From: an uncultured Actinomycetes bacterium
GTDB taxonomy: Bacteria; Actinomycetota; UBA4738; JBBDTT01
Length of the DNA stretch: 64,000 nt
Direction of reading: 5' to 3'
NCBI GenBank assembly: GCA_963742735.1
Contig: CAVUMN010000003.1
Coordinates: 384,001-448,000 of the forward strand
Positions within the stretch are counted from its first letter, which is position 1; each line of letters opens with the position of its first letter. Shown one piece after another: positions 9,435-47,106 of the stretch. A model generated the notes under the pieces. The model did not search any database and had not been told where the DNA came from. It saw nothing but the letters and a program-made list of their open reading frames with translations. Position numbers and translations under genes: made by a program.

Positions 9435-10297
9435 TCGTTGGGCTCGGGGCCTCGCTGGTTCCGCAGGAACCGTTCGAGCTCGCGGGCGAGCTCGTCACCG
9501 CTGGGGATGTCCGTGATGCCCTCGCCCACCTCGTCGGATGCGGACTCGAGCCGCTGCACGTACTCGGTCAGCTCGCCGTTCTCCGCGACGATGCCGTCGA
9601 TCCGCTCGGTCCATTCGTCGACCGCCTGGGTCAGCTCCTCGGTGGGCACGACGACGTCGACCAGCATCGACAGGCGTTCCACCAGCGCGAGCGCGGCCTT
9701 CGGGTTCGGTCCGCTCGGCAGGTAGTGCGGGACCGCGGCCCACAGGCTGATCGAGGGGAGTCCGGCGCGGTTCGACGCGTCGTGCAGGACTCCGACGACG
9801 CCGGTGGGGCCCTCGTAGCGCGACGCCGACATCCCCAGGTCCTCCGCCTCGGCGGCGGTCGGCGCCGAGCCGGTGACCCGGATCGGACGAGAGTGGGGGA
9901 GGTCCGCGAGGAACCCACCAAGCGTCACGAGCCGGTGGACGCCGAGGTCCTGACCGAGGCCGACGATCGCCTCGGTGAACGTCCGCCACCGCACGCTCGG
10001 CTCCAGGCCGAGGAACAGGACGACGTCGCGCTCGGGAAGCGACGCGTGGAAGAACTCGGCGCCCGGCCAGTCGATGCGCCGCGTGATCCCGTCCACCAGG
10101 CGCACCGTCGGGCGGTTGACCTGGAAGTCGTAAAACTCCTCGGGGTCGATCCACGCGAACCGCTTCGCGCCCCATCGTTCCCGGAGGAACGAGACGGCCC
10201 CGCTGGCCGATTCGCCCGCGTCGTTCCAGCCGCTGAAGGCGACCACCAGCACCGGCCGGCGCAGCTGGGGACGGTCCTCGAAGACGATGGGGTCCAT
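9431..10297 (-). CDS. PAC2-family (proteasome assembly chaperone-like) protein
   Basis: AFSGWNDAGESA, DPEEFYDFQVNRP, YEGPTGVVG, WAAVPHY, PNPKA. Confidence 0.9.
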   Translation of the reverse strand: MDPIVFEDRPQLRRPVLVVAFSGWNDAGESASGAVSFLRERWGAKRFAWIDPEEFYDFQVNRPTVRLVDGITRRIDWPGAEFFHASLPERDVVLFLGLEPSVRWRTFTEAIVGLGQDLGVHRLVTLGGFLADLPHSRPIRVTGSAPTAAEAEDLGMSASRYEGPTGVVGVLHDASNRAGLPSISLWAAVPHYLPSGPNPKAALALVERLSMLVDVVVPTEELTQAVDEWTERIDGIVAENGELTEYVQRLESASDEVGEGITDIPSGDELARELERFLRNQRGPEPNE

Positions 10298-10361
10298 CGA
10301 CCAAGCTTCCCACCTCCTCCCCGTGTCGCCAATAGAGGGCGGGCGGGCGAGAATCGCGGCG

Positions 10362-10793
10362 ATGCGAACCCGGGACGCACGCCTGCGCGCGCTGGTCTAC
10401 GGCCTGGTCGTCGCCGGGCTTGCCGCCGTCGGCGTCCTCGCGTGGGACCGCTACGGCCAGATCGTCGTGGTCCTCGCGGTGCTGCTGGCGTTGCTCTGGC
10501 CACTGCGACGGGAGCCGGGGTCGTTCTGGCCGCTGGCCGCCGGCGCCGTCGTGCTCACCGTCGCCTACCTGCTCCTCGCCCCCGCGAACTGCACGACCGG
10601 CGCGATCAAGCCCGTCGGCGGGGACCAGGTGCCGGGACGGTTCTGCGAGAGCCTGGCCGGCGTGGACTACGAACGCGAGGGAACCGAGGACCCCAGCCCG
10701 CTGCCGGCGTTCGGGGCCTCGCTCGCGGCCGGACTGATCGTCGCGGCGGGCGCCCGCGCCGCGTTCCGGCGTTGGGGAGATGCGGCCGAATGA
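10362..10793 (+). CDS. Hypothetical membrane protein
   Basis: About four hydrophobic segments with a two-Cys loop; ATGA overlap with the next gene. Confidence 0.6.
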   Translation: MRTRDARLRALVYGLVVAGLAAVGVLAWDRYGQIVVVLAVLLALLWPLRREPGSFWPLAAGAVVLTVAYLLLAPANCTTGAIKPVGGDQVPGRFCESLAGVDYEREGTEDPSPLPAFGASLAAGLIVAAGARAAFRRWGDAAE

Positions 10794-34656: not shown

Positions 34657-35721
34657 GCGCCAGCGCACCGTGGCGGGGGATCATCGCGGAGTACCGGGAG
34701 CGCCTGCCCGTCACCGACGCGACCCCGGTGGTGACCATGCAGGAGGGAGGCACGCCGCTCATCCGCTCGCGCGGCGCTGTCCGAGGAGACCGGGCGGGAG
34801 GTCTACCTGAAGTTCGAGGGCGCCAACCCGACGGGCTCGTTCAAGGACCGGGGGATGACCCTGGCGATCTCCAAGGCCCTCGAGGAGGGCTCGCGGGCGG
34901 TGGTGTGCGCGTCCACCGGCAACACGAGCGCGTCCGCCGCGGCGTACGCGGGACTGGCCGGCGCTGACCTGCGCGGTCCTGGTCCCCAAGGGCCGGATCG
35001 CCCTGGGGAAGATGGCCCAGACCCTGGTCCACGGCGCCCGCGTCCTGGAGGTGGACGGGAACTTCGACGCGTGCCTCGAGGTGCGCGCGGGTCCTGGCCG
35101 ACCGCTACCCGGTCACCCTGGTGAACTCCGTGAACCCGTACCGGCTCGAGGGCCAGAAGACCGCGGCGTTCGAGATCTGCGACGCGCTCGGCCGAGCGCC
35201 CGACCTGCACTTCATCCCGGTCGGCAACGCCGGCAACATCTCGAGCCACTGGATCGGGTACTCCGAGTACGCGAAGGACGGCGACGATCGACGGTCCGCC
35301 CGCGCTGTTCGGGTTCCAGGCCAGCCGGCGCGGCGCCGATCGTCCGGGGAGAGCCGATCGCCAGACCCCTCCGACGATCGCCACCGCGATCCGCATCGGC
35401 AACCCCGCGTCCTGGGACCTGGCGGTCGACGGCCGCCAAGGACTCCGGCGGGGAGATCTCGGCGGTGACCGACCGGGAGATCCTGTCCGCGTACCGGCAG
35501 GTGGCGCGCGAGGGCGTGTTCTGCGAGATGGCGTCCGCGGCGTCCGTGGCCGGGCTGCTGCAGCTCCACGCGCGACGGGAGGCTCCCTCCCGGCGAGGAC
35601 CGTCGTCTGCGTCCTCACGGGCCACGGCCTGAAGGACCCGGACTGGGCGATCGCCGGCGCCGGCAAGCCGCCGGTGCTGCCGCCCGACGCGGACGCCATC
35701 GCCGCCGACCTCGGGCTGTAG
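34653..35721 (+). CDS. thrC: Threonine synthase (several frameshifts)
   Basis: [59 protein letters not shown]. Confidence 0.92.
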
Positions 35722-35725
35722 ACCG

Positions 35726-36605
35726 ATGGGCGACTACCGGGTCAGCGTCCCGGCCACCGTCGCGAACCTCGGGCCGGGGTTCGACTGCTTCGGCATGGCG
35801 GTCGACCTGGCAACGAGGTCCTCGTCGAGGCTGGACGGACCGCCGGGGATCGAGGTCGCGGGGCGAGGGCGCGGGCGAGCTCGCCGACCGACGGCTCCGG
35901 GAACCTGATCTGCCGGACGATGACGTTCCTGGCGCGCGGAGCTGGGGGGCACGTGCCCCGACGCTCCGGCTGGTCTGCGAGAACCGGATCCCCCTCCAGC
36001 GAGGCCTCGGCTCGTCGTCCGCCGCGATCGTCGCCGGGCTGCTCATCGCCGACCGGCTCCTGGACGCGAACCTCGGGACCGGCCGCCTGCTGGAGCTCGC
36101 CGCGGACCTGGAGGGCCACGCCGACAACGTCGCCCCGGCGCTCCTGGGCGGCGTTCGCATCGCGTATCTGCTCCAAGGACGGGCTGGCGGACCGAGGCGC
36201 TCGCACCCGCACGCCGCCCTCCGGCCGGTCCTGCTGATCCCGCTCGAGGAACGGCTTCCGACCGACGACGCCCGCCGGGTCCTTGCCACCCACGTCCCCC
36301 GCGGGGACGCGACCTTCAACTTGTCCCGAGTGGCCCTGCTGGTGGTGGCCCTCACCGAGCGTCCGGAGCTGCTCGTCGATGCCCTCGAGGACCGCCTGCA
36401 CCAACAGGCGCGGCTGCCGCTCGTCCCCGCCTCCCGGGCGGTGTTCGAAGACCTCCGCGAAGCCCGCGTTCCGGTGTGCGTCGCCGGCGCCGGCCCGGCC
36501 CTGCTCGCGTTCGAGTCGGACGACCGGCCGGTGAAGGACATGGGTGCGTCGTGGCGGACGCACCGCGCCACGATCGCCGGCGGGGCGTCGATCCGGGAGG
36601 CGTAA
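35726..36605 (+). CDS. thrB: Homoserine kinase (several frameshifts)
   Basis: VPATVANLGPGFD, RGLGSSSAA, EGHADNVA, DRLHQ, AGAGP. Confidence 0.9.
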
Positions 36606-36623
36606 CTCCCTACACTGGCCGCG

Positions 36624-38818
36624 ATGGACGATCCCGTCGCCGATCGCCCTCAGATCCAGGCCTCGCAGGTCGTCGTCGCCGACGTCACCAGCAAGGTCCT
36701 CGCCACCAAGGAGGGCGAGACCTTCCTGTACTGCGACACCGAGGGCAATCTGGACGACCGCAAGGAGCTCGGGCTCGGCCTGTACTACAAGGACACGCGC
36801 TTCCTGTCCCACTTCCGGATGCTGCTCTCGGGGCGGGAGCCCGTCCTGCTCTCCTCGTCGTCCGAGCGCGCCTACATGTCGTACGTGGACCTCACCAACC
36901 CGGACCTGTACGAGGGCGAGGAGGTCGCGGTGCCCCAGCAGACCCTCAACGTCCGCCGGATCCGGACGATCAATGGGCGGCTGTTCGAGCGGATCCGGAT
37001 GAAGAACTACAACCCCTTCCCCGTGCGGGTCACGGTGGAGCTGTCCCTGGGGGCGCGACTTCGCCGACATCTTCGAGGTCCGCGGGCTCAGCCGGCACCG
37101 GCACGGTCGCCACGAGCCGCCGGTGGCCGAGCGGCCGGACCGCGGAGTTCGCATACACGGGGATCGACGGCGTTCGGCTTCGCACGCTGGTCGAGTTCGG
37201 GAGCGAGCCGGAGCACGTCGAGGTTCGCGGCGACGTCGTGCACGCCCGCTTCGTCGTGCATCTGTCCGGCCACCAGACGAAGCTCGTGTCGATGACGGTC
37301 GCGCCGATCGGTGGGCGAGGTCGCCCCGCCGACCATGGACTTCGACGTCGCCGTCCACGACCTCCGCCGGTCCTACGAGGACTGGGAGCGCGAATCCACC
37401 CAGATCACCACCGACAACGAGCTGTTCGACCAGCTCCTCACCCGTGGGCATCCGCGACCTTCGCGCGCTCTACACGGCGATGGACGGCGGCCACATCATC
37501 GCGGCCGGCATCCCCTGGTACGTCACGGTGTTCGGCCGCGACGCCCTGATCGACCGCGCACCAGCTCCTGATGGTGAACCCGCAGCACGCGCGCGAGACC
37601 CTCCGAGATCCTGGCCGACCTGCAGGGAACGAAGGAGGACCCGTGGCGCGACGAGGAGCCCGGGAAGATCCTCCACGAGATCCGCCGGGGCGAGCTGGCC
37701 CGGGCGGGCGCGATCCCGCACACGCCGTACTACGGCGCGGTCGACTCGACGCCCGTGGTTCCTGATCCTGCTGCGCGATGTACTTCCGCTGGACGGGCGA
37801 CCGGGAGTTCGCGAAGGCAATGCTGCCCGGCGGCCGAGGCGGCGCTGCGCTGGATCGACGAGTACGGCGACCGCGACGGCGACGGATTCGTCGAGTACCA
37901 GACGCGCTCGCCGCTGGGGCTGCGCAACCAGGGATGGAAGGACTCGTGCGACTCGGTCGTCCACGCCGACGGGCGGCTGGCGGAGCCCCCGATCGCGCTG
38001 GCCGAGGTGCAGGCCTACGTCTACCTGGCCAAGGCGCGGATGGCCGACGTGTACGAGGCGCTCGGGCGAGCGAGTCCCGCGCGGACCAGCTCCGTGGGGA
38101 GGCCGATGATGCTCCGCGCCCGGTTCAACGAGGCGTTCTGGATGGAGGACGAGCAGTACTTCGCCGAGGCCCTCGACGCCGACAAGCGGCCCGGTCCGCA
38201 CCGTCACCTCGAACCCCGGGCACGCGCCTGTACTGCGACATCATCGACCAGGACAAGGCCGAGCACGTCGCCCGTCGGCTGCTCGCAGCCCGACATGTTC
38301 TCGGGCTGGGGGATCCGGACCATGAGCAAGTCGGCCGCCGCGTACAACCCGATGAGCTATCACAACGGCTCGGTGTGGCCGCACGACAACGCGTTGATCG
38401 CGGCGGGGCTGAAGCGGTACGGGTTCCACGAAAGCCACGACCGCGGCTGGCCACGGCCATCTTCGACGCCGCCATCCACACCGACTACATGCGGCTGCCC
38501 GAGCTGTTCTGCGGGTTCACCCGGCGAACGCCGAACCGGCCGGTCGGCTACCCGGTCGCCTGTTCACCCGCAGGCCTGGGCCGCGGGATCGCCGTTCCTG
38601 CTCCTGCAGGCGATGCTCGGCGTCTCGGCCCGCGCCGCACGAGAACCTGCTCACGGTGAACAAGCCCGCACCTGCCCCCGTGGCTGAACCACGTCGAGCT
38701 GCGCAACCTGCGGGTGGGCGACAGCCGCATCTCGATCGTGTTCCGCCGCGAGGGCGAGGTCACCGGCTTCTCCCTCATCCAGAAGGAGGGCGACGTCCGC
38801 GTGGTGATGGAGGAATAA
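36624..38818 (+). CDS. Amylo-alpha-1,6-glucosidase / glycogen debranching-like glycoside hydrolase (several frameshifts)
   Basis: GLYYKDTRFLS, AAGIPWY.TVFGRD, EEPGKILHE, NQGWKDS, ALAEVQAY, SYHNGSVWPHDN, LPELFCG, PQAWAA. Confidence 0.88.
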
Positions 38819-40379
38819 CCTCCTCCGGGCCGGCCAGGATGACCTCCCGGCCGGCCGCGAGCAGCACGTGCACCCCCCGGCCGCGAAGGTCCTCGATCGC
38901 GGAGGCGTCGAGCTCCTGAGGCGCCGTCCACCGCATGGCCGCCCAGTCCCGGCCGCCGAGGTCGAACGTCCTGCGAACCAGCTCGTCGGTGGCGGCCGCG
39001 GCGAAGGCGGCGGCGGCAACCTGGGTCGCGCTGAGCGCCGCGTCCACCCCGAACGTCGTGCGCACGCGGTCGGCCAGGACGTCGTCGAACACCCGGGCCA
39101 CGGTCCGGATCGACGGGTTCAGTCGCCGGGCCTGCACGCAGGCGCCCAGGTTCGCCAGGTCGTCGTCGGTGCAGGCGAACAGCAGCGAGGCTCGTGCGAT
39201 GCCCGCCCGCTCCAGGTTCTCCAGCAGCCGGACGTCGCCGATCAGGACCGGCGCGCGCTCCGCCACGGGGCCGGCGAAGCGGGCGTGCGGGTCGCGCTCC
39301 AGAACCACGGTGGCCACGCCCATGTCCCTGAGCAGCCGCTCGATCCGATAGCCGACCGTTCCGAGCCCGAGGATGATCGCGTGGCCCCGCATCCGGCGCG
39401 CCCGGCGCCCCATCCGGACGTCGAGCCGATTGGCGGTGGCGATCGACGCCAGCTGCGAGAACACCACGCCGACCAGCGCGGCGCTGATCAGCATCGAGCC
39501 GACCCCGAACACCTTCAGCCAGGCATCCGACTCCTCGAGGCCGGGATCGCCGAACGCCGTCCGCACGGCGGCGTAGAGCGCGTCGATCGGTCCGAGGTCG
39601 AGCGCCGCCGCGAAGACGATGACGTTGGTCAGCAGGATCAGACCGAGTCCGGCGGCGGCGTACGGCAGCAGCGTCCTCGGGCGCGGTCCGCCCCGCTCGC
39701 GTTCGGCCTTCGGTCGGGCGCGAGGCGCCGCCGGCAGGTCGGCGTCGGCGAAGGCCAGGGCCAGGACGTCGCGCAGCGGTCCCCCCACCACAGTCTCCTC
39801 GCCGGCGGGGATCTGCCCCGCGACCTCGGTGACCGGTTCCCACACGCCCGTCCCCAAGTCGCGGGCGACCAGCGCGAGACCCGCGGGGAGGGCCCGGACC
39901 CCCGACGCGCGCAGCCGGACGAGCGAGACGTCCTCGTCGCCGAGGCGCAGCGTGTGGAGGACCTCGTCGGCGAGCGCCGCGGCGACGAACGCCGGCGCGG
40001 CGAGCCGCGACATCGAGTATGCCCGGCGAAGGTTCGCCGCCTGGCCCAGCTGGGTCGTCAGGACGGGGTCGAACGATCGAACCACGAGCGGGACGCCGGG
40101 GGCGAGCGCGGTGGCGGCGAGCGACGCCTCGAGGTTCACCCGGTCGTCCTCGGACAGCGCCAGGATGCAGTCCGCGCTCTCGGCGCCCGCGGCGCGGAGG
40201 GACTCCTCCGGGTCCACCGCCGCGACCGCCACCCGAACGCGCGGGGGCAGCAGCCGCGCGAGGGACTCCGTGCCCTCCTCGGCCACGACGATGACCTCGG
40301 GGTCGCCCTGCTCCATGAGGTTGCGGGCCACCCGCACGGAGAGCCGGCTGAGGCCGAACAGCACGAAGCGGCGGTCCAT
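38775..40379 (-). CDS. RCK/TrkA-N domain protein with central 2-TM channel-like segment
   Basis: Two Rossmann-like RCK domains (VLFGLSRL..DDRVNLE; IILGLGTVG..DDDLANL) flanking TM-DALY..AFGD-TM; pore motif non-canonical. Confidence 0.78.
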   Translation of the reverse strand: MDRRFVLFGLSRLSVRVARNLMEQGDPEVIVVAEEGTESLARLLPPRVRVAVAAVDPEESLRAAGAESADCILALSEDDRVNLEASLAATALAPGVPLVVRSFDPVLTTQLGQAANLRRAYSMSRLAAPAFVAAALADEVLHTLRLGDEDVSLVRLRASGVRALPAGLALVARDLGTGVWEPVTEVAGQIPAGEETVVGGPLRDVLALAFADADLPAAPRARPKAERERGGPRPRTLLPYAAAGLGLILLTNVIVFAAALDLGPIDALYAAVRTAFGDPGLEESDAWLKVFGVGSMLISAALVGVVFSQLASIATANRLDVRMGRRARRMRGHAIILGLGTVGYRIERLLRDMGVATVVLERDPHARFAGPVAERAPVLIGDVRLLENLERAGIARASLLFACTDDDLANLGACVQARRLNPSIRTVARVFDDVLADRVRTTFGVDAALSATQVAAAAFAAAATDELVRRTFDLGGRDWAAMRWTAPQELDASAIEDLRGRGVHVLLAAGREVILAGPEEVIPPSPRGRRPPSG

Positions 40380-41566
40380 CAGAGGCAGGGGCCGGTGTCG
40401 ACCTCGTTGACGTTGCCGCTGGCCTCGTTCACGCGTTCGAGGATGTCGATGGACAGCAGTGCGTAGCCGATGTTGTCGTCGGTTGTGGACGCCGCGAACA
40501 CCACCCCGGCCACCTCGCCGCTCACCAGGACGAACGGGCCTCCCGAGTTCCCGGGGCGGATCCGGGCCTGGAGCTCGTACACCCGCCGGTCGACCTTGCC
40601 CTTCCCGTAGATGTTGCGCGTCTCGGTGTTCCGTACGAGTCGCACCGCCGCGGCGCCCCTGGTCAGCGGCCCGTTCTCCGGGTAGCCGAGGACGGCGCCC
40701 TTGTCGCCACGGTCGACCTCGCGATCCAGCAGCTCCAGGACCGGCCCCGGGTTTTCCTGGACACGGAGGATCGCCACGTCCAGCCCGGCGTCGAACAACA
40801 CCGTGGTCGCCGTGACCTGGCCCTCGACGCCCTGCTCCTGGATGTACGGGTCGTCCACGCCCGCGACCACGTGGGCGTTGGTCACGATCAGCCCGTCGCC
40901 CGCGACGAACCCCGAGCCTTCCTGGATCGCGCCGCAGGCCTCGCCCAGGACCTTGACGGTGCTCCTCTCGGCGCCCTCGGCCGCGCGGGCCACCTCGCCC
41001 TGGGTCGGCCCCTTGACGGGGCCGGCCGGCGCCGGGGGGAGGCCGCTGAACACCTGCGGGAACCCGAACGTGTTCAGGAAGCTCCGGATCTGGGTGAGCA
41101 ACGAGGGCGGCGGCGGCATCAACCGGTCGAGACCTCGGACGACGACCGAGCCCTGGATCTCTCGAGAGACCGCCGGGATGGGGCCGCTGGCGAGGTTCAG
41201 CGCGATCAGCCAGGTCGCCAGGAGCACCGCGACCACCGCAACGAACGACCCGGCGGCCGAGTCGACCTTCGACAGCCGGCTGGCGCGCGCCGCGGCCCAC
41301 ACCTTCCGGCCCACGACGAAGCCGGCCGCGTCGCCGATCCCCGCGATGGCCAGGAACGTCCCGAGGGCCAGGGCCGCCTGCATCGTCTGGCTCTCCGCCA
41401 GGCCCGCGACCTTCGGCGCCAGGAGGGCGCCGAGCAGCAGGCCGGCGATGAGGCCGGTGTACGTGACCAGCTGCAGGGCCGCCCCGCGGCGGAAGCCCCC
41501 GAGGACCGCGAGCACCACGAGGCCGACGATCAGGAGGTCGACGAGGTTGAGCCCCAGGAAGGCCAT
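40379..41566 (-). CDS. MarP-family membrane serine protease (CvpA TM domain + trypsin-like domain)
   Basis: GFRRG N-terminal TM region; GSGFV, TNAHVV, DVAIL, GNSGGP. Confidence 0.9.
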   Translation of the reverse strand: MAFLGLNLVDLLIVGLVVLAVLGGFRRGAALQLVTYTGLIAGLLLGALLAPKVAGLAESQTMQAALALGTFLAIAGIGDAAGFVVGRKVWAAARASRLSKVDSAAGSFVAVVAVLLATWLIALNLASGPIPAVSREIQGSVVVRGLDRLMPPPPSLLTQIRSFLNTFGFPQVFSGLPPAPAGPVKGPTQGEVARAAEGAERSTVKVLGEACGAIQEGSGFVAGDGLIVTNAHVVAGVDDPYIQEQGVEGQVTATTVLFDAGLDVAILRVQENPGPVLELLDREVDRGDKGAVLGYPENGPLTRGAAAVRLVRNTETRNIYGKGKVDRRVYELQARIRPGNSGGPFVLVSGEVAGVVFAASTTDDNIGYALLSIDILERVNEASGNVNEVDTGPCL

Positions 41567-41607
41567 GAGCGGGTATCGTGCCACGCCCCGCGGGTACACT
41601 GGAGTGC

Positions 41608-42407
41608 GTGACGACGATCGCGCACATCTCGGACCCCCACGTCGGATCCCCGTACTTCGTGCCCAACCTGATGAACCGGGTGATCGTCGAGATCAACGAG
41701 CTCGAGCCCGACGCCGTCATCTGCACCGGCGACTTCACGACGTTCGGCTATCGCCAGGAGTTCAAGAACTGCGGCGGCGTACGTCGAGCGGATCAAGGCG
41801 CCGGTGTGGTCGGTCCCGGGCAACCACGACGCCCGCAACGTGGGCTACGTGCACTTCGAGGAGCTGATCGGTCCCCGCCACTGGGCCCAGGACGTGGGGA
41901 ACGTGCGGATCGTCGGCGCCGACACCAGCGAGCCGGACCTCGACGAGGGCCAGATCGGGCGCGAGCGGTACCCCTGGCTCGAGGAGCAGTTCGCGGTCCC
42001 CGCCGAGCTCAAGATGCTCGTGATCCATCACCACCTGATCTCGCTCCCCGGCACCGGACGCGAGCGCAACATCGTCGATGACGCCGGCGACCTGCTGGAG
42101 CTGCTCATCACGAACGGCGTGCAGCTCGTCCTGACCGGGCACAAGCACGTCCCGTACGTGTGGCGGCTCGAGGACATGTACATCGCGAACGCCGGGACCT
42201 GTTCCTCGCTGCGGCTGCGCGGACATACCCGGCCCTGCTACAACGTGATGGAGTTCGACGGCGACGAGGTGAAGATCTTGCGGCGGTACCCGTTCGGCGC
42301 GCAGACCCTCGTCGCGCACTGGTCGCTCTCGACCGGCCGAGCAGCACTACCGCGAGCTCGACACGCTGATGCGTCGAGGCACGGAGGCTCCGATCCGCGC
42401 GGACTGA
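41608..42407 (+). CDS. Calcineurin-like metallophosphoesterase (CpdA/Icc-type), frameshifts near 41770 and 42340
   Basis: All five motifs: HISDPH, TGD, PGNHD, HHH, GHKH; TACACT 7 nt before GTG. Confidence 0.88.
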
Positions 42408-42440
42408 GCCTCACCGGAACGACAGGAAGGGCCCATCTCC

Positions 42441-43786
42441 GTGACCAAGCGTCATCGTGCTCGTCGACGGTGAGCACTACCCACCCGTGACCCGCTGGGG
42501 GATCGAGACGGCCCGTGACCGCGGGCTCGAGCCCGTCGCGGTCCTGCTCGTCGGCGGCCGGGAGAAGCTGCCCGCCGACGGCTCGCTCGACCTGGGGGAC
42601 GTCGCGGTCGAGTCGACGGAGGCGCCGCTGACCGCCCTGCCCGAGGCGATCGACCGGCTGCGCCCCGACGCGGTGCTCGACCTCTCGGACGAGCCGGTGC
42701 TCGGGTACCGCGAGCGGATGGAGCTCGCGTCGATCGCCCTCGCCCGGGGATGTCCCTACCTCGGGGCGGACTTCCGGCTGGACCCGCCCCCGCTCGATCC
42801 GCCCCCGCCGATGCCCACGCTCGCGGTGATCGGGACCGGCAAGCGCACCGGCAAGACCGCGATCGGCGGACACCTGGCGCGACTCGCGAAGGCGGCGGGA
42901 CGTCGTCCCGTGGTGGTGGCCATGGGCCGCGGCGGCCCGCCCGAGCCCGAGGTCGCCGAGGGCTCGCTCGACCTGGAGCGGCTCCGCGAGCTGTCGCGCG
43001 AGGGGCGGCACGCGTCGAGCGACTACCTGGAGGACGCCCTCACGGCCGGGGTGACCACGGTCGGGGCCCGCCGGTGCGCGGGCGGGCTGGCCGGGGCTCC
43101 CTTCGCCTCGAACGTTCCCGAGGCCGTCCGCGAGGCCGAGCGGCTGGGCGCCGGACCCGCTGGTGCTCGAGGGCAGCGGCGCCGCCATCCCGCCGGTGGC
43201 GTGGGACGCCGGGGTTCTGGTCGCCCCCGCGTCGCTGGACCCCGAGTATCTGGGGGATACCTGGGCCCGTACCGACTGTTGCGATCGGACCTGTTGGTCA
43301 TTACAATGGTGTCCGGCCCGGGTTCCGGGCCGGCAAGCCTTTCCGCCCTCGTATCCCACGTCCACCGGGTCCGTTCGGATGCCCGGATCGCCATCAGCGA
43401 CTTCGTACCGACGCCGCTCGGCGACGTGGAGGGAAGTCGAGTGTTCTTCTCAACCACCGCATCCCAGCACGGCGCCGATGCGCAGATCCGTTCCCTGGTG
43501 TCGCGCCACGGCGTGACCGTGGTCGGGTGCAGCCGGACGACTCGCCGATCGGGCGGGACTGGCCGAGGACATCCGCAGCGCGCCGGAGTACGACGTCCTG
43601 CTCACCGAGCTGAAGGCCGCCTCCGTCGACGTGGCCGCGGAACTCGCGGCGGAGCGGGGCGCGGAGGTGGTGTTCGTGGACAACCGGCCCGTGACGGTGC
43701 CGGGGCCCGGCGACGGCGAGGTCGACGATCTGCTGATGCGAGACGCGTTCGCCTGGCGGACGAGCGGGCGAAGGAGCGCAGCGTGA
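42441..43786 (+). CDS. cpgS: Cyclic 2,3-diphosphoglycerate synthetase (several frameshifts)
   Basis: LVDGEHYPPV, DLSDEPV, GTGKRTGKT, AMGRGGP, HASSDYLEDA, RRCAGGLAG, LEGSGAAIPP, LLTELKAASVDV, FVDNRP match my recall of cDPGS signatures. Confidence 0.87.
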
Positions 43787-44772
43787 CGGTCAAGACGAAG
43801 AAGCGCCCCACGCACATCGTGATCGCCGATCGCGAGCACGGGCTGCCGTACTCGAAGGGGCTGATGGCCTCGCAGCTCATGGTGACCGGGCTGTCGCCGT
43901 ACCGCTCCTACCAGGTGGCGGAGCGCGTGGAGGAGCGCCTGCTCGAGCGCGGCAAGGCGCGCGGTCACCAGCGCCGAGCTCCAGGCCCTCACCGTCCGGG
44001 TCCTCGAGGAGGTGGCGGGGGACCGCTACGCCAAGAACTTCGTGCGCTGGCAGGAGGTCGCCGCGCTCGACGTGCCGCTCGTGATCCTGATCGGCGGCGC
44101 GACCGGGGTCGGGAAGTCGACCATCGCCACCCAGCTCGCCGCCCGGCTCGGCATCGTCCGCGTCGTGGCCACCGATGCGATCCGCGAGGTGATGCGCTCG
44201 ATGTTCAGCTCGGAGCTGATGCCCACGCTGTACACGTCGTCGTTCGACGCCGGACTCGGCGCTGCGGGAGCCGCCGCCGAAGCCCGCCGACCCCGTCATC
44301 GTCGGGTTCCGCGAGCAGACCACGGCGGTCGCCGTCGGCATCCACGCGCTGATCGAGCGGGCCGCTACCGAGGGCACCAGCCTCATCGTGGAGGGCGCCC
44401 ATCTGGTTCCCGGCTTCGTGGACGTCGCGCCGTGGCAGGAGCGGGTGCTCGCCGTCGAGCTCGTGGTTACCGTCGAGGACGAGGACGTGCACCGCGGCCA
44501 CTTCGCGGCGCGGGCCGCGGACGCGGCCTCGCGCCCGTTCGACCGCTACATGAAGGGCTTCCGCAACATCCGCAGGGTGCAGAAGTACATCAAGAGCCAG
44601 GCGCTCTCCCACGGCGTGCCGGTCGTCCCCAACTACAACTTGGACCAGGCGATCGCCGCGGTCGTCGACCTGGTCATGGAACGCGCCACCGAGCGGGTCG
44701 GCCGAGCGAAAGGCACGGACGACTCGCCGACGGCCGACGAGCCGGAGCGCGATAGGGGGAGGGACCCGATGA
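43783..44772 (+). CDS. pgk2: 2-phosphoglycerate kinase (ATP-cone + P-loop; frameshifts; 3' end uncertain)
   Basis: ATP-cone-like PYSKGLMA; LIGGATGVGKST, TDAIREVMR, PTLYTSSF, IVEGAHLVPG, RY..F.NIR.VQ.YI. Confidence 0.85.
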
Positions 44773-45438
44773 GGCTGTTCCTGGACACCGCCAACATCGA
44801 CGAGATCCGCGAGATCAACCGATGGGGCGTCCTGCCGGGCGTGACCACGAACCCGTCGCTCCTGGCACGGGAGATGGGCGACGTCGAGAAAGCGTGGCGT
44901 CTGATCCTCGAGGAGGTCTGCCAGGGCGACGTCTCCCTCGAGACGACCGAGCCCGAGGCCGAGGCGATGTACGAGCAGGGCAAGCACCTGGCCTCGCTGG
45001 GCGCCGAACGCCGTCGTGAAGGTCCCGATGACCCCCGACGGCCTCACGGCCGGCAAGCGGCTCACCGAGCGACGGGCATCCGGATCAACGTGACCCTGGT
45101 GTTCTCCCCGGCGCAGGCGATCCTGGCCGCCGAGATCGGCGCCTACATCGTCTCGCCGTTCCTCGGGCGGCATCGACGACGGCGCCGCGGACGGGATGCA
45201 CGCGCTCAGGCAGATCTGCGACATCTATGATGTGCAGGGCTACGAGACCAACGTCCTGGCCGCCTCCCTGCGCCACCCCATGCACGTCGTGGAGTCCGCG
45301 CTGGCGGGCGCCGACATCGCGACGATGCCGTACGACGTCTTCACCAAGCTGGTGAAGCATCCACTCACCGACAAGGGACTCGCGCAGTTCGAGGCGGACT
45401 GGGAGAAGCTCCAGAAAGACCTGAAGGAAGGAGCCTAG
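44769..45438 (+). CDS. tal: Transaldolase / fructose-6-phosphate aldolase family (TalC type; frameshifts)
   Basis: [54 protein letters not shown]. Confidence 0.9.
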
Positions 45439-45439
45439 T

Positions 45440-47095
<1,656 letters not shown>

Positions 47096-47106
<11 letters not shown>

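Follow-up and report, generated by a model that had tools for sequence, protein, structure and literature searches.

Cyclic 2,3-diphosphoglycerate (cDPG) is made by archaeal enzymes in two ATP-dependent steps: 2-phosphoglycerate kinase (2PGK) converts 2-phosphoglycerate (2-PG) and ATP to 2,3-diphosphoglycerate (2,3-DPG), and cDPG synthetase (cDPGS) closes an intramolecular phosphoanhydride with a second ATP (PMC10690619, PMC12136491). The synthetase of Methanothermus fervidus has been solved in the apo form (8ORK) and with ADP, Mg and 2,3-DPG (8ORU; PMC10690619), and the presence of a cDPG synthetase has been taken to mark thermophily (PMC7554672). ArcE (TK2200 of Thermococcus kodakarensis), distantly related to cDPGS, is ATP/ADP-dependent and widespread in bacteria (PMC11032458). 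Here we describe homologues of both pathway enzymes, encoded by the genes cpgS and 2pgk, in a window of 64,000 nucleotides (positions 384,001 to 448,000 of contig CAVUMN010000003.1) from an uncultured bacterium of the Actinomycetota. We consider it fairly probable that these genes and that of a metallophosphoesterase (MPE) form a functional MPE-cpgS-2pgk module, followed by tal and rho, in a high-GC soil member of this phylum, and that the breaks in their reading frames are assembly errors.

A full-text literature search returned no paper joining cyclic 2,3-diphosphoglycerate with Actinobacteria, and among the matches listed cDPG was mentioned for none of Rubrobacter, Gaiella, Thermoleophilia, Solirubrobacter and Actinomycetota; the genome paper of Gaiella occulta discusses compatible solutes and leaves cDPG unmentioned. 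Titles, abstract openings and some full papers in the literature searched named no bacterial carrier of cDPG synthetase. Among the matches listed for 2-phosphoglycerate kinase, bacteria appeared only through COG2074, long recorded in Thermus and Deinococcus without cDPG (excerpts of PMC1274311). A preliminary description of the window, made from the sequence alone, knew of no demonstration of native cDPG in bacteria, and none is reported in the literature searched.

Homologues of the two pathway enzymes

The first 234 residues of the window CpgS (42457-43158) match, among solved structures, 9sxb with E 3e-49, and 8oru and 8ork with E 5e-48. An intact ortholog of 444 amino acids (locus L010), 57% identical to the window protein, matches 8oru and 8ork over its residues 2-438 (E 1e-92), with about 40% identity to the characterised M. 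fervidus enzyme over the full length, and all four pieces of the window cpgS align in order to orthologs. The window CpgS is collinear with 8ORK, 8ORU and 9SXB and has the same P-loop, GTGKRxGKT. Through L010, this full-length collinear match identifies cpgS as a homologue of cDPG synthetase, as had been proposed, and the fold can be regarded as settled by sequence identity to the solved enzyme. All motifs quoted in the preliminary description were found again in the three forward frames of 42400-45300, both those of CpgS (LVDGEHYPPV, GTGKRTGKT, MGRGGP, HASSDYLEDA, LEGSGAAIPP and LTELKAA) and those of 2PGK (GGATGVGKST, TDAIREVMR and EGAHLVPG). Motif set and homology together are far beyond chance, and they confirm the original observation.

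The numbering of 8ork is that of PMC10690619, and we mapped the ligand residues from section 8 of that paper. There, the other subunit contributes E45 and K46 as contacts of 2,3-DPG; K145, R146, K149 and T150 are assigned to the P-loop, substrate and Mg, and D208 to Mg; T353, E404 and K406 are assigned to the nucleotide and to charge shielding; and E305 contacts adenosine (PMC10690619). The window keeps ten of the 11 mapped residues (E45, K46, K145, R146, K149, T150, D208, T353, E404 and K406); E305, the eleventh, is considered below. The four P-loop residues, in the Walker A motif GTGKRTGKT, do not vary in any of the 79 aligned rows, bacterial or archaeal, and neither do E45 and K46, in the motif GGREKL, nor E404 and K406. 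D208, within HASSDYLEDA, is D in 78 of the 79 rows, and T353 is T in 73. The N-terminal E-K pair that binds 2,3-DPG across the dimer in M. fervidus cDPGS, its Mg ligands and its TELK motif are therefore kept in the window, and both this residue conservation and the homology are direct observations. P335, also named in that paper, could not be mapped, as position 335 of 8ork counts as F.

Neither the window pieces nor L010 had a CpgS family match in the copies of Pfam and NCBIfam used, which hold no CpgS model. Precomputed annotation places PF27272 (CpgS_N) on all 120 homologues among the matches listed, JGI and NCBI name many homologues 'cyclic 2,3-diphosphoglycerate synthetase', and ESM Atlas clusters labelled CpgS_N are mostly from Actinomycetota. 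The family counts 242 members at E<=1e-30, and 661 at E<=1e-10, among 1.84 billion cluster representatives. Bacterial members are already named cDPG synthetase in databases, and the window holds one more, error-ridden, instance.

Searched against family models, the pieces of the window 2PGK matched NCBIfam NF003259 with 29.8, 117.5 and 133 bits (26, 116 and 131.7 bits in the search of the genome). The intact ortholog of locus L014 matched the same model end to end (291.7 bits, E 7e-87, profile positions 5-298 of 306). These matches support the assignment of 2pgk as a homologue of 2PGK. The P-loop GGATGVGKST is present in the window protein, and the L014 ortholog shares with archaeal 2PGK (NF003259/PRK04220; COG2074) the P-loop kinase core and, possibly, an N-terminus weakly like an ATP-cone. 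The ATP-cone, which had been listed among the signatures of the window gene, stands as a near-threshold signal of orthologs: the N-terminal 100 residues of two of them scored 25.4 and 20.5 bits, just below the Pfam cut-off of 25.8, and the window piece had no match. A search of the PDB for a solved relative of 2PGK found none, the sole match being a spurious P-loop.

A conserved module with a metallophosphoesterase

In the window the GTG of 2pgk at 43783 overlaps the frame-2 stop of cpgS (TGA 43784-43786, as GTGA), which supports the proposed translational coupling of the two genes, and the stop of 2pgk (TGA 44770-44772) overlaps the ATG of tal (as ATGA). A CpgS-2PGK fusion, prompted by long open frames, was rejected, as in the loci checked the two differ in frame or have a stop between them. 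Directly upstream of cpgS, and missed in the preliminary description, is the gene of an MPE that is conserved and co-travels with cpgS-2pgk. Its two parts match the MPE of L010 at 81% (41608-41769, frame 1) and 68% (41777-42331, frame 2), and an ortholog scores 69.4 bits on Pfam Metallophos. The nearest solved relatives are Rv0805/Icc and GpdQ (E 6e-12 to 3e-8). MPE is far under every NCBIfam equivalog cut-off (38.6 bits against a cut-off of 225 for PRK11148 CpdA, and 37.9 against 400 for SpdA), so that the scores support superfamily membership alone. MPE thus shares the calcineurin-like dimetal phosphoesterase fold family with Rv0805, Icc/CpdA and GpdQ, at only 37-49 bits; its phyletic pattern follows cpgS rather than cyclic-nucleotide signalling.

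We then compared the locus with other genomes of the order and phylum; both tallies include genomes flagged as unpublished, as do one of 30 loci of close relatives (L005) and one of 20 diverse loci, together with its tree row (L032). Within the order, 38 genomes out of 41, counting that of the window, gave a cpgS match, and the three genomes without one are 61%, 81% and 94% complete. In the close relatives, which include Gaiellaceae, unclassified Actinomycetota and 'Actinomycetes' metagenome-assembled genomes (MAGs), cpgS is in a single frame in 29 of 30 loci (L027 has one shift) and 2pgk follows directly in 29, the 30th stopping at a contig end. The rarity implied by calling the pathway archaeal-type does not hold at the level of the phylum, where CpgS homologues occur in 230 of 401 sampled genomes and 150 of 249 genera, mostly with E 1e-80 to 1e-120 and a full-length identity of about 45%. 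A family nearly always has it in all of its sampled genomes or in none (26/26, 31/31 and 28/28, for instance, versus 0/21, 0/19 and 0/13). In the 20 loci from diverse families of the phylum, with GC from 0.38 to 0.73, cpgS was found in all, with 2pgk adjacent in 17, MPE in 16 and tal in 15. The order MPE-cpgS-2pgk-tal is therefore usual both in relatives and across the phylum, and its conservation in relatives bears out the placement of the genes upstream of tal-rho in the core backbone rather than on a mobile island. GC at the locus, 0.72, is that of the window, and a recent island is ruled out by composition and synteny.

The three diverse loci without adjacent 2pgk (L037-L039) all come from one family, f19, with complete genomes of 3.0-3.3 Mb in which MPE and cpgS are adjacent and a more distant 2PGK-like gene, 32-34% identical to the query, lies elsewhere. 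In f19 the MPE-CpgS link looks tighter than that of CpgS with 2PGK.

Across a wider range, a profile scan gave 564 or more encoding stretches, with carriers that include Euzebyaceae, Acidimicrobiia, Geothermincola, Coriobacteriia and Thermoleophilia. A pattern scan with the P-loop variant GKRIGKT gave 80 loci, some of them short. Of these, 31, all from Actinomycetota, had MPE-cpgS-2pgk, four, from closely related haloarchaea, had cpgS-2pgk only, and 45 had cpgS alone (40 Methanobacteriota, two Kitasatospora and three other bacterial MAGs). The window thus differs from the 40 non-haloarchaeal Methanobacteriota loci, where cpgS is alone within about 5 kb (some loci being short), in having cpgS in an operon with 2pgk and MPE. 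The CpgS homologues of Kitasatospora (L162 2575-3822 and L167 4130-5377) are 45-46% identical to L010 and have no adjacent MPE or 2PGK; one Kitasatospora genome was searched throughout and gave no 2PGK match. These proteins may have a different role or have been transferred.

Gene order and co-occurrence were observed directly, and they suggest that MPE travels with cpgS-2pgk. Ten near-complete genomes of ten families that lack CpgS all lacked an MPE ortholog, with one weak partial match (1e-11, 29%), and the five of them searched for 2PGK lacked it too; this control was hand-picked, with kin that are not independent, and gives a pattern, not a statistic. Conversely, MPE orthologs were present in three of three Methanobacteriaceae genomes searched, at 40-45% identity over nearly the full length (E 2e-56 to 5e-61). 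No MPE ortholog was found in one Natronorubrum genome, and Kitasatospora gave a weak match only.

In Methanosphaera (contig of L171) about 9 kb separate cpgS from the MPE ortholog, at 9799-10479 of the same contig. Methanosphaera and Methanobrevibacter, mesophilic methanogens of gut and rumen, have both cpgS and the MPE ortholog, which argues against a purely heat-protective role. In haloarchaea a PHP-domain phosphoesterase stands after cpgS-2pgk in place of the calcineurin-like MPE, in four of four loci (L202 7034-7828, L137 5023-5799, L207 7015-7803 and L187 6840-7613); these are close kin and count as one lineage. The PHP protein may have taken the place of the partner phosphoesterase as a non-orthologous substitute.

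A tree of CpgS with archaeal sequences was built from 79 rows and 443 columns (IQ-TREE quick search with SH-aLRT support, unrooted, many rows skewed in composition). Six of 115 loci were dropped beforehand, having fewer than 400 residues matched or an internal stop, and near-duplicate rows of Methanobacteriota and low-GC actinobacteria were thinned to reach 79. The archaeal sample, gathered through the P-loop pattern, is biased to Methanobacteriaceae and haloarchaea and lacks Methanothermus, Methanopyrus and Nitrososphaerota. The window CpgS groups with three sequences of its own order with support 100. Methanobacteria form one clade (100), as do haloarchaea (100), which are joined by two bacterial MAG sequences (99). 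Both archaeal clades fall within a set of 36 rows (95) that also contains low-GC Actinomycetota lineages. Sequences of Gaiellales, Kitasatospora and f19 lie across the midpoint, with Kitasatospora among Gaiellales. As no clean split between bacteria and archaea is seen, and archaeal clades stand amid actinobacterial rows, 'archaeal-type' is best taken as a historical label rather than a demonstrated origin, and we draw no donor or direction from the tree; the direction of any ancient transfer is not decidable from an unrooted tree.

Frame breaks, function and alternative readings

As the preliminary description had remarked, both cpgS and 2pgk are spread over several frames. In cpgS, which has no uninterrupted frame as given, indels lie at 42450, ~43150, ~43260, ~43541 and probably ~43755. 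The part up to '...AERLGA' is in frame 1 (42451-43149), 'DPLVLEGSGAAIPP...PEYLG' in frame 2, 'YLGPYRLL...VVGCS' in frame 1 and 'RLADRAGL...LLTELKAA...VFVDNRP' in frame 2. The start is likely the GTG at 42441, after AGGAAGGG, which would join 'VIVLVDGEH' if base 42450 is removed. The final ~10 codons are closer to the ortholog in frame 1 ('LADERAKERS' against 'LAVERGRERG' in L010). One or two further indels are probable near 43755-43785, and this assembly does not show precisely where cpgS and 2pgk join. In 2pgk, 'VTVKTKKRPTHIV...' is in frame 1, '...GGATGVGKST...TDAIREVMR...' in frame 2, '...EGAHLVPG...' in frame 0 and the final ~24 codons in frame 1.

Neighbouring genes are broken in the same way. 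Compared with L011, L014 and L015, there is one shift in MPE, at least four in cpgS, three in 2pgk, three in tal, at least three in rho and one in a glycogen-debranching-like gene upstream, so that all six compared genes, the essential rho included, are affected, with an indel about every 450 bases over 5.5 kb. Single-base indels occur throughout 35000-47100 (for example at 41772, 45005, 45070, 45165, 46945 and 47049). The shift at 43260 falls in a run of five G, where orthologs read two glycine codons. The genome, of 3.08 Mb in five contigs, is 88.9% complete by marker genes, and few contigs with incomplete markers fit a long-read assembly with indel errors. Findings based on open reading frames, in this window or in the whole five-contig genome, call for a frameshift-tolerant reading.

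Read-derived contigs from a public soil run, near-identical to the window, are a single base shorter at 42450 and again at 44699, so that an ortholog-like start and C-terminus are restored; the error nature of these two indels is thereby observed directly. The contigs are gapless over 42868-43107 and 44792-44942, where no indel is expected, and show three gaps inside 43539-43801, where indels are expected, the exact places being not listed. This is one run, with short contigs, a depth of 3-4 and 12% of sampled words shared; its contigs cover parts of the locus, none spanning it, and two other runs contained mostly relatives. As evidence of assembly errors the contigs are support short of proof. 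Because all six compared genes are split alike and soil-run contigs restore the frame, the breaks are best read as single-base assembly indels, not gene decay, directly for the two and by extension for the remaining ones.

In the mechanism we propose, 2PGK would phosphorylate 2-phosphoglycerate with ATP to 2,3-DPG, and CpgS would use a second ATP to join both phosphates into a cyclic pyrophosphate, cDPG, the reaction shown for M. fervidus cDPGS. The same two reactions are expected here because substrate and metal ligands are kept, consecutive steps stand in one operon and purifying conservation across the phylum is strong, and cDPG synthesis by this organism is likely. The co-inherited MPE would most likely re-open cDPG, or dephosphorylate 2,3-DPG; it is a candidate cDPG hydrolase because of linkage, co-occurrence and a fold family with members that cleave cyclic phosphodiesters. 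Other members of that fold family (LpxH/LpxG-type) cleave pyrophosphate bonds. In older literature an enzymatic conversion of cDPG to 2,3-DPG was reportedly described in Methanobacterium thermoautotrophicum, with no gene assigned, and to our knowledge a cDPG hydrolase gene has never been identified. Together the three genes would make a cycle of synthesis and turnover, a store that can be filled and drained, and in a soil mesophile cDPG would more plausibly be a store of phosphate, energy or carbon, or an anionic osmolyte, than a heat protectant. We infer the enzyme activities, the accumulation of cDPG, the substrate of MPE and the physiological role from sequence.

Several observations weigh against this assignment and favour a module of the CpgS and 2PGK families that makes or handles something else, which we consider unlikely, though a serious alternative. 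In such a module 2,3-DPG might be the end product, for example as a cofactor of phosphoglycerate mutase; a different cyclic or linear pyrophosphate might be made; or CpgS might run in reverse and make ATP, like its distant relative ArcE with arginine. The CpgS superfamily includes ArcE, an arginine synthetase, which shows that its members can have unrelated substrates and that membership alone does not fix the chemistry (PMC11032458). cDPG itself has been said to occur exclusively in hyperthermophilic methanogens (PMC10690619), and the literature searched, with subscription journals and supplements outside it, held no enzyme or metabolite data on a bacterial member. Whereas the host of M. fervidus cDPGS is a hyperthermophilic methanogen, that of the window is a high-GC soil bacterium; carriers include mesophiles (the soil run, Methanobrevibacter and Methanosphaera), in which one would not expect a heat protectant. 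At the adenosine contact E305 the window has S and L010 has T, where 64 of the 79 rows have E and nine have D. The 2PGK ortholog of L014, at 291.7 bits, falls below the curated NF003259 equivalog cut-off of 343, and the window pieces sum to about 280. Five of 14 control genomes match NF003259 and only one of the five passes 343 bits, so that many '2PGK-like' proteins are of unproven function; the cut-off is a strict one. The substrate of MPE, finally, is deduced purely from linkage and fold family. Against a different chemistry, however, the 2,3-DPG residues of 8oru (E45, K46, K145 and R146) and the Mg ligands (T150 and D208) are all kept, five of these six being invariant across the alignment and D208 nearly so. 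CpgS is about 40% identical to the characterised enzyme from end to end, versus a similarity of ArcE that is called low (PMC11032458), and the tight coupling of two consecutive steps matches what cDPG synthesis predicts. By the description of ArcE in that paper, the window CpgS would stand apart from it, as a close collinear relative of cDPGS with its 2,3-DPG ligands kept. Among the genes identified beside cpgS there was no arcB or arcC, the neighbours being 2pgk and MPE.

It is very unlikely that the frame breaks exist in the organism itself, as the preliminary description had allowed, and that the cluster is a remnant in decay. As given, cpgS does change frame at least four times and 2pgk three times, and a genome of the same genus (G001) has no cpgS match, though it is only 61% complete. 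Only two of the ~9 indels in cpgS and 2pgk are directly contradicted by read-derived contigs, 42450 alone in cpgS, and the soil run may be the window's own source sample. However, essential rho, tal, MPE and the glycogen-debranching-like gene are equally split, identity to orthologs is 57-85% on either side of every break with no internal stops in the matched segments, two indels are missing from near-identical contigs and one lies in a homopolymer. Even less credible is that this bacterium recently acquired the pair from archaea by horizontal transfer. Archaea are the source of all characterised members (PMC10690619), but the locus has the GC of its window, families that range in GC from 0.38 to 0.73 share the synteny with MPE, tal and rho, the window protein groups with genomes of its own order at full support, and presence is all-or-none by family across the phylum. 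A functional module obscured by assembly errors remains the reading we prefer.

The window is an ordinary example for its phylum, and its added value to a wider hypothesis, a bacterial cDPG metabolism with a candidate hydrolase, is modest. More than half of the Actinomycetota genomes sampled, soil lineages included, keep the gene set. Tentatively, cDPG might be no archaeal speciality for heat protection but a common metabolite of Actinomycetota, soil mesophiles among them, with MPE as its hydrolase and the Methanobacteriaceae orthologs acting likewise, the module being present in about half of the sampled genomes. If the genes are active, the distribution and presumed role of cDPG would need revising toward phosphate or energy storage or osmoadaptation, and the phylum would offer mesophilic bacterial versions of enzymes under development for extremolyte production (PMC12136491). 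MPE would in that case be a concrete candidate for the breakdown step.

Locus layout and neighbouring genes

The features of the locus are collected in Table 1. The outer limits given in the preliminary description for cpgS-2pgk, 42441 and 44772, are exact once the indels at 42450 and 44699 are allowed for.

Table 1. Genes of the module and downstream genes, in window coordinates
Feature	Position	Strand	Remarks
MPE (calcineurin-like metallophosphoesterase, class III phosphodiesterase-like)	41608..42440	+	frame change near 41772; 3' end uncertain
cpgS, cyclic 2,3-diphosphoglycerate synthetase homologue	42441..43786	+	frames 0, 1, 2, 1, 2, possibly 1 again
2pgk, 2-phosphoglycerate kinase homologue	43783..44772	+	frame changes near 43950, 44252 and 44699
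tal, fructose-6-phosphate aldolase/transaldolase family	44769..45438	+	frame changes at ~45005, ~45070 and ~45165
rho, transcription termination factor (name from the preliminary description)	45440..47100	+	context gene, at least three frames

The tal ortholog of L014 scores 250.6 bits on TIGR00875 (cut-off 245.95), and rho matches the corresponding reading frames of L014, L015 and L011 in window frames 3, 2, 3 and 1. Upstream of the module are a large glycogen-debranching-like gene of the amylo-alpha-1,6-glucosidase type (36669-38815) and, on the minus strand, a CvpA/serine-protease-like gene (40379-41599), both named from their translations. The two genes show the same synteny in the relatives L011, L014 and L015.

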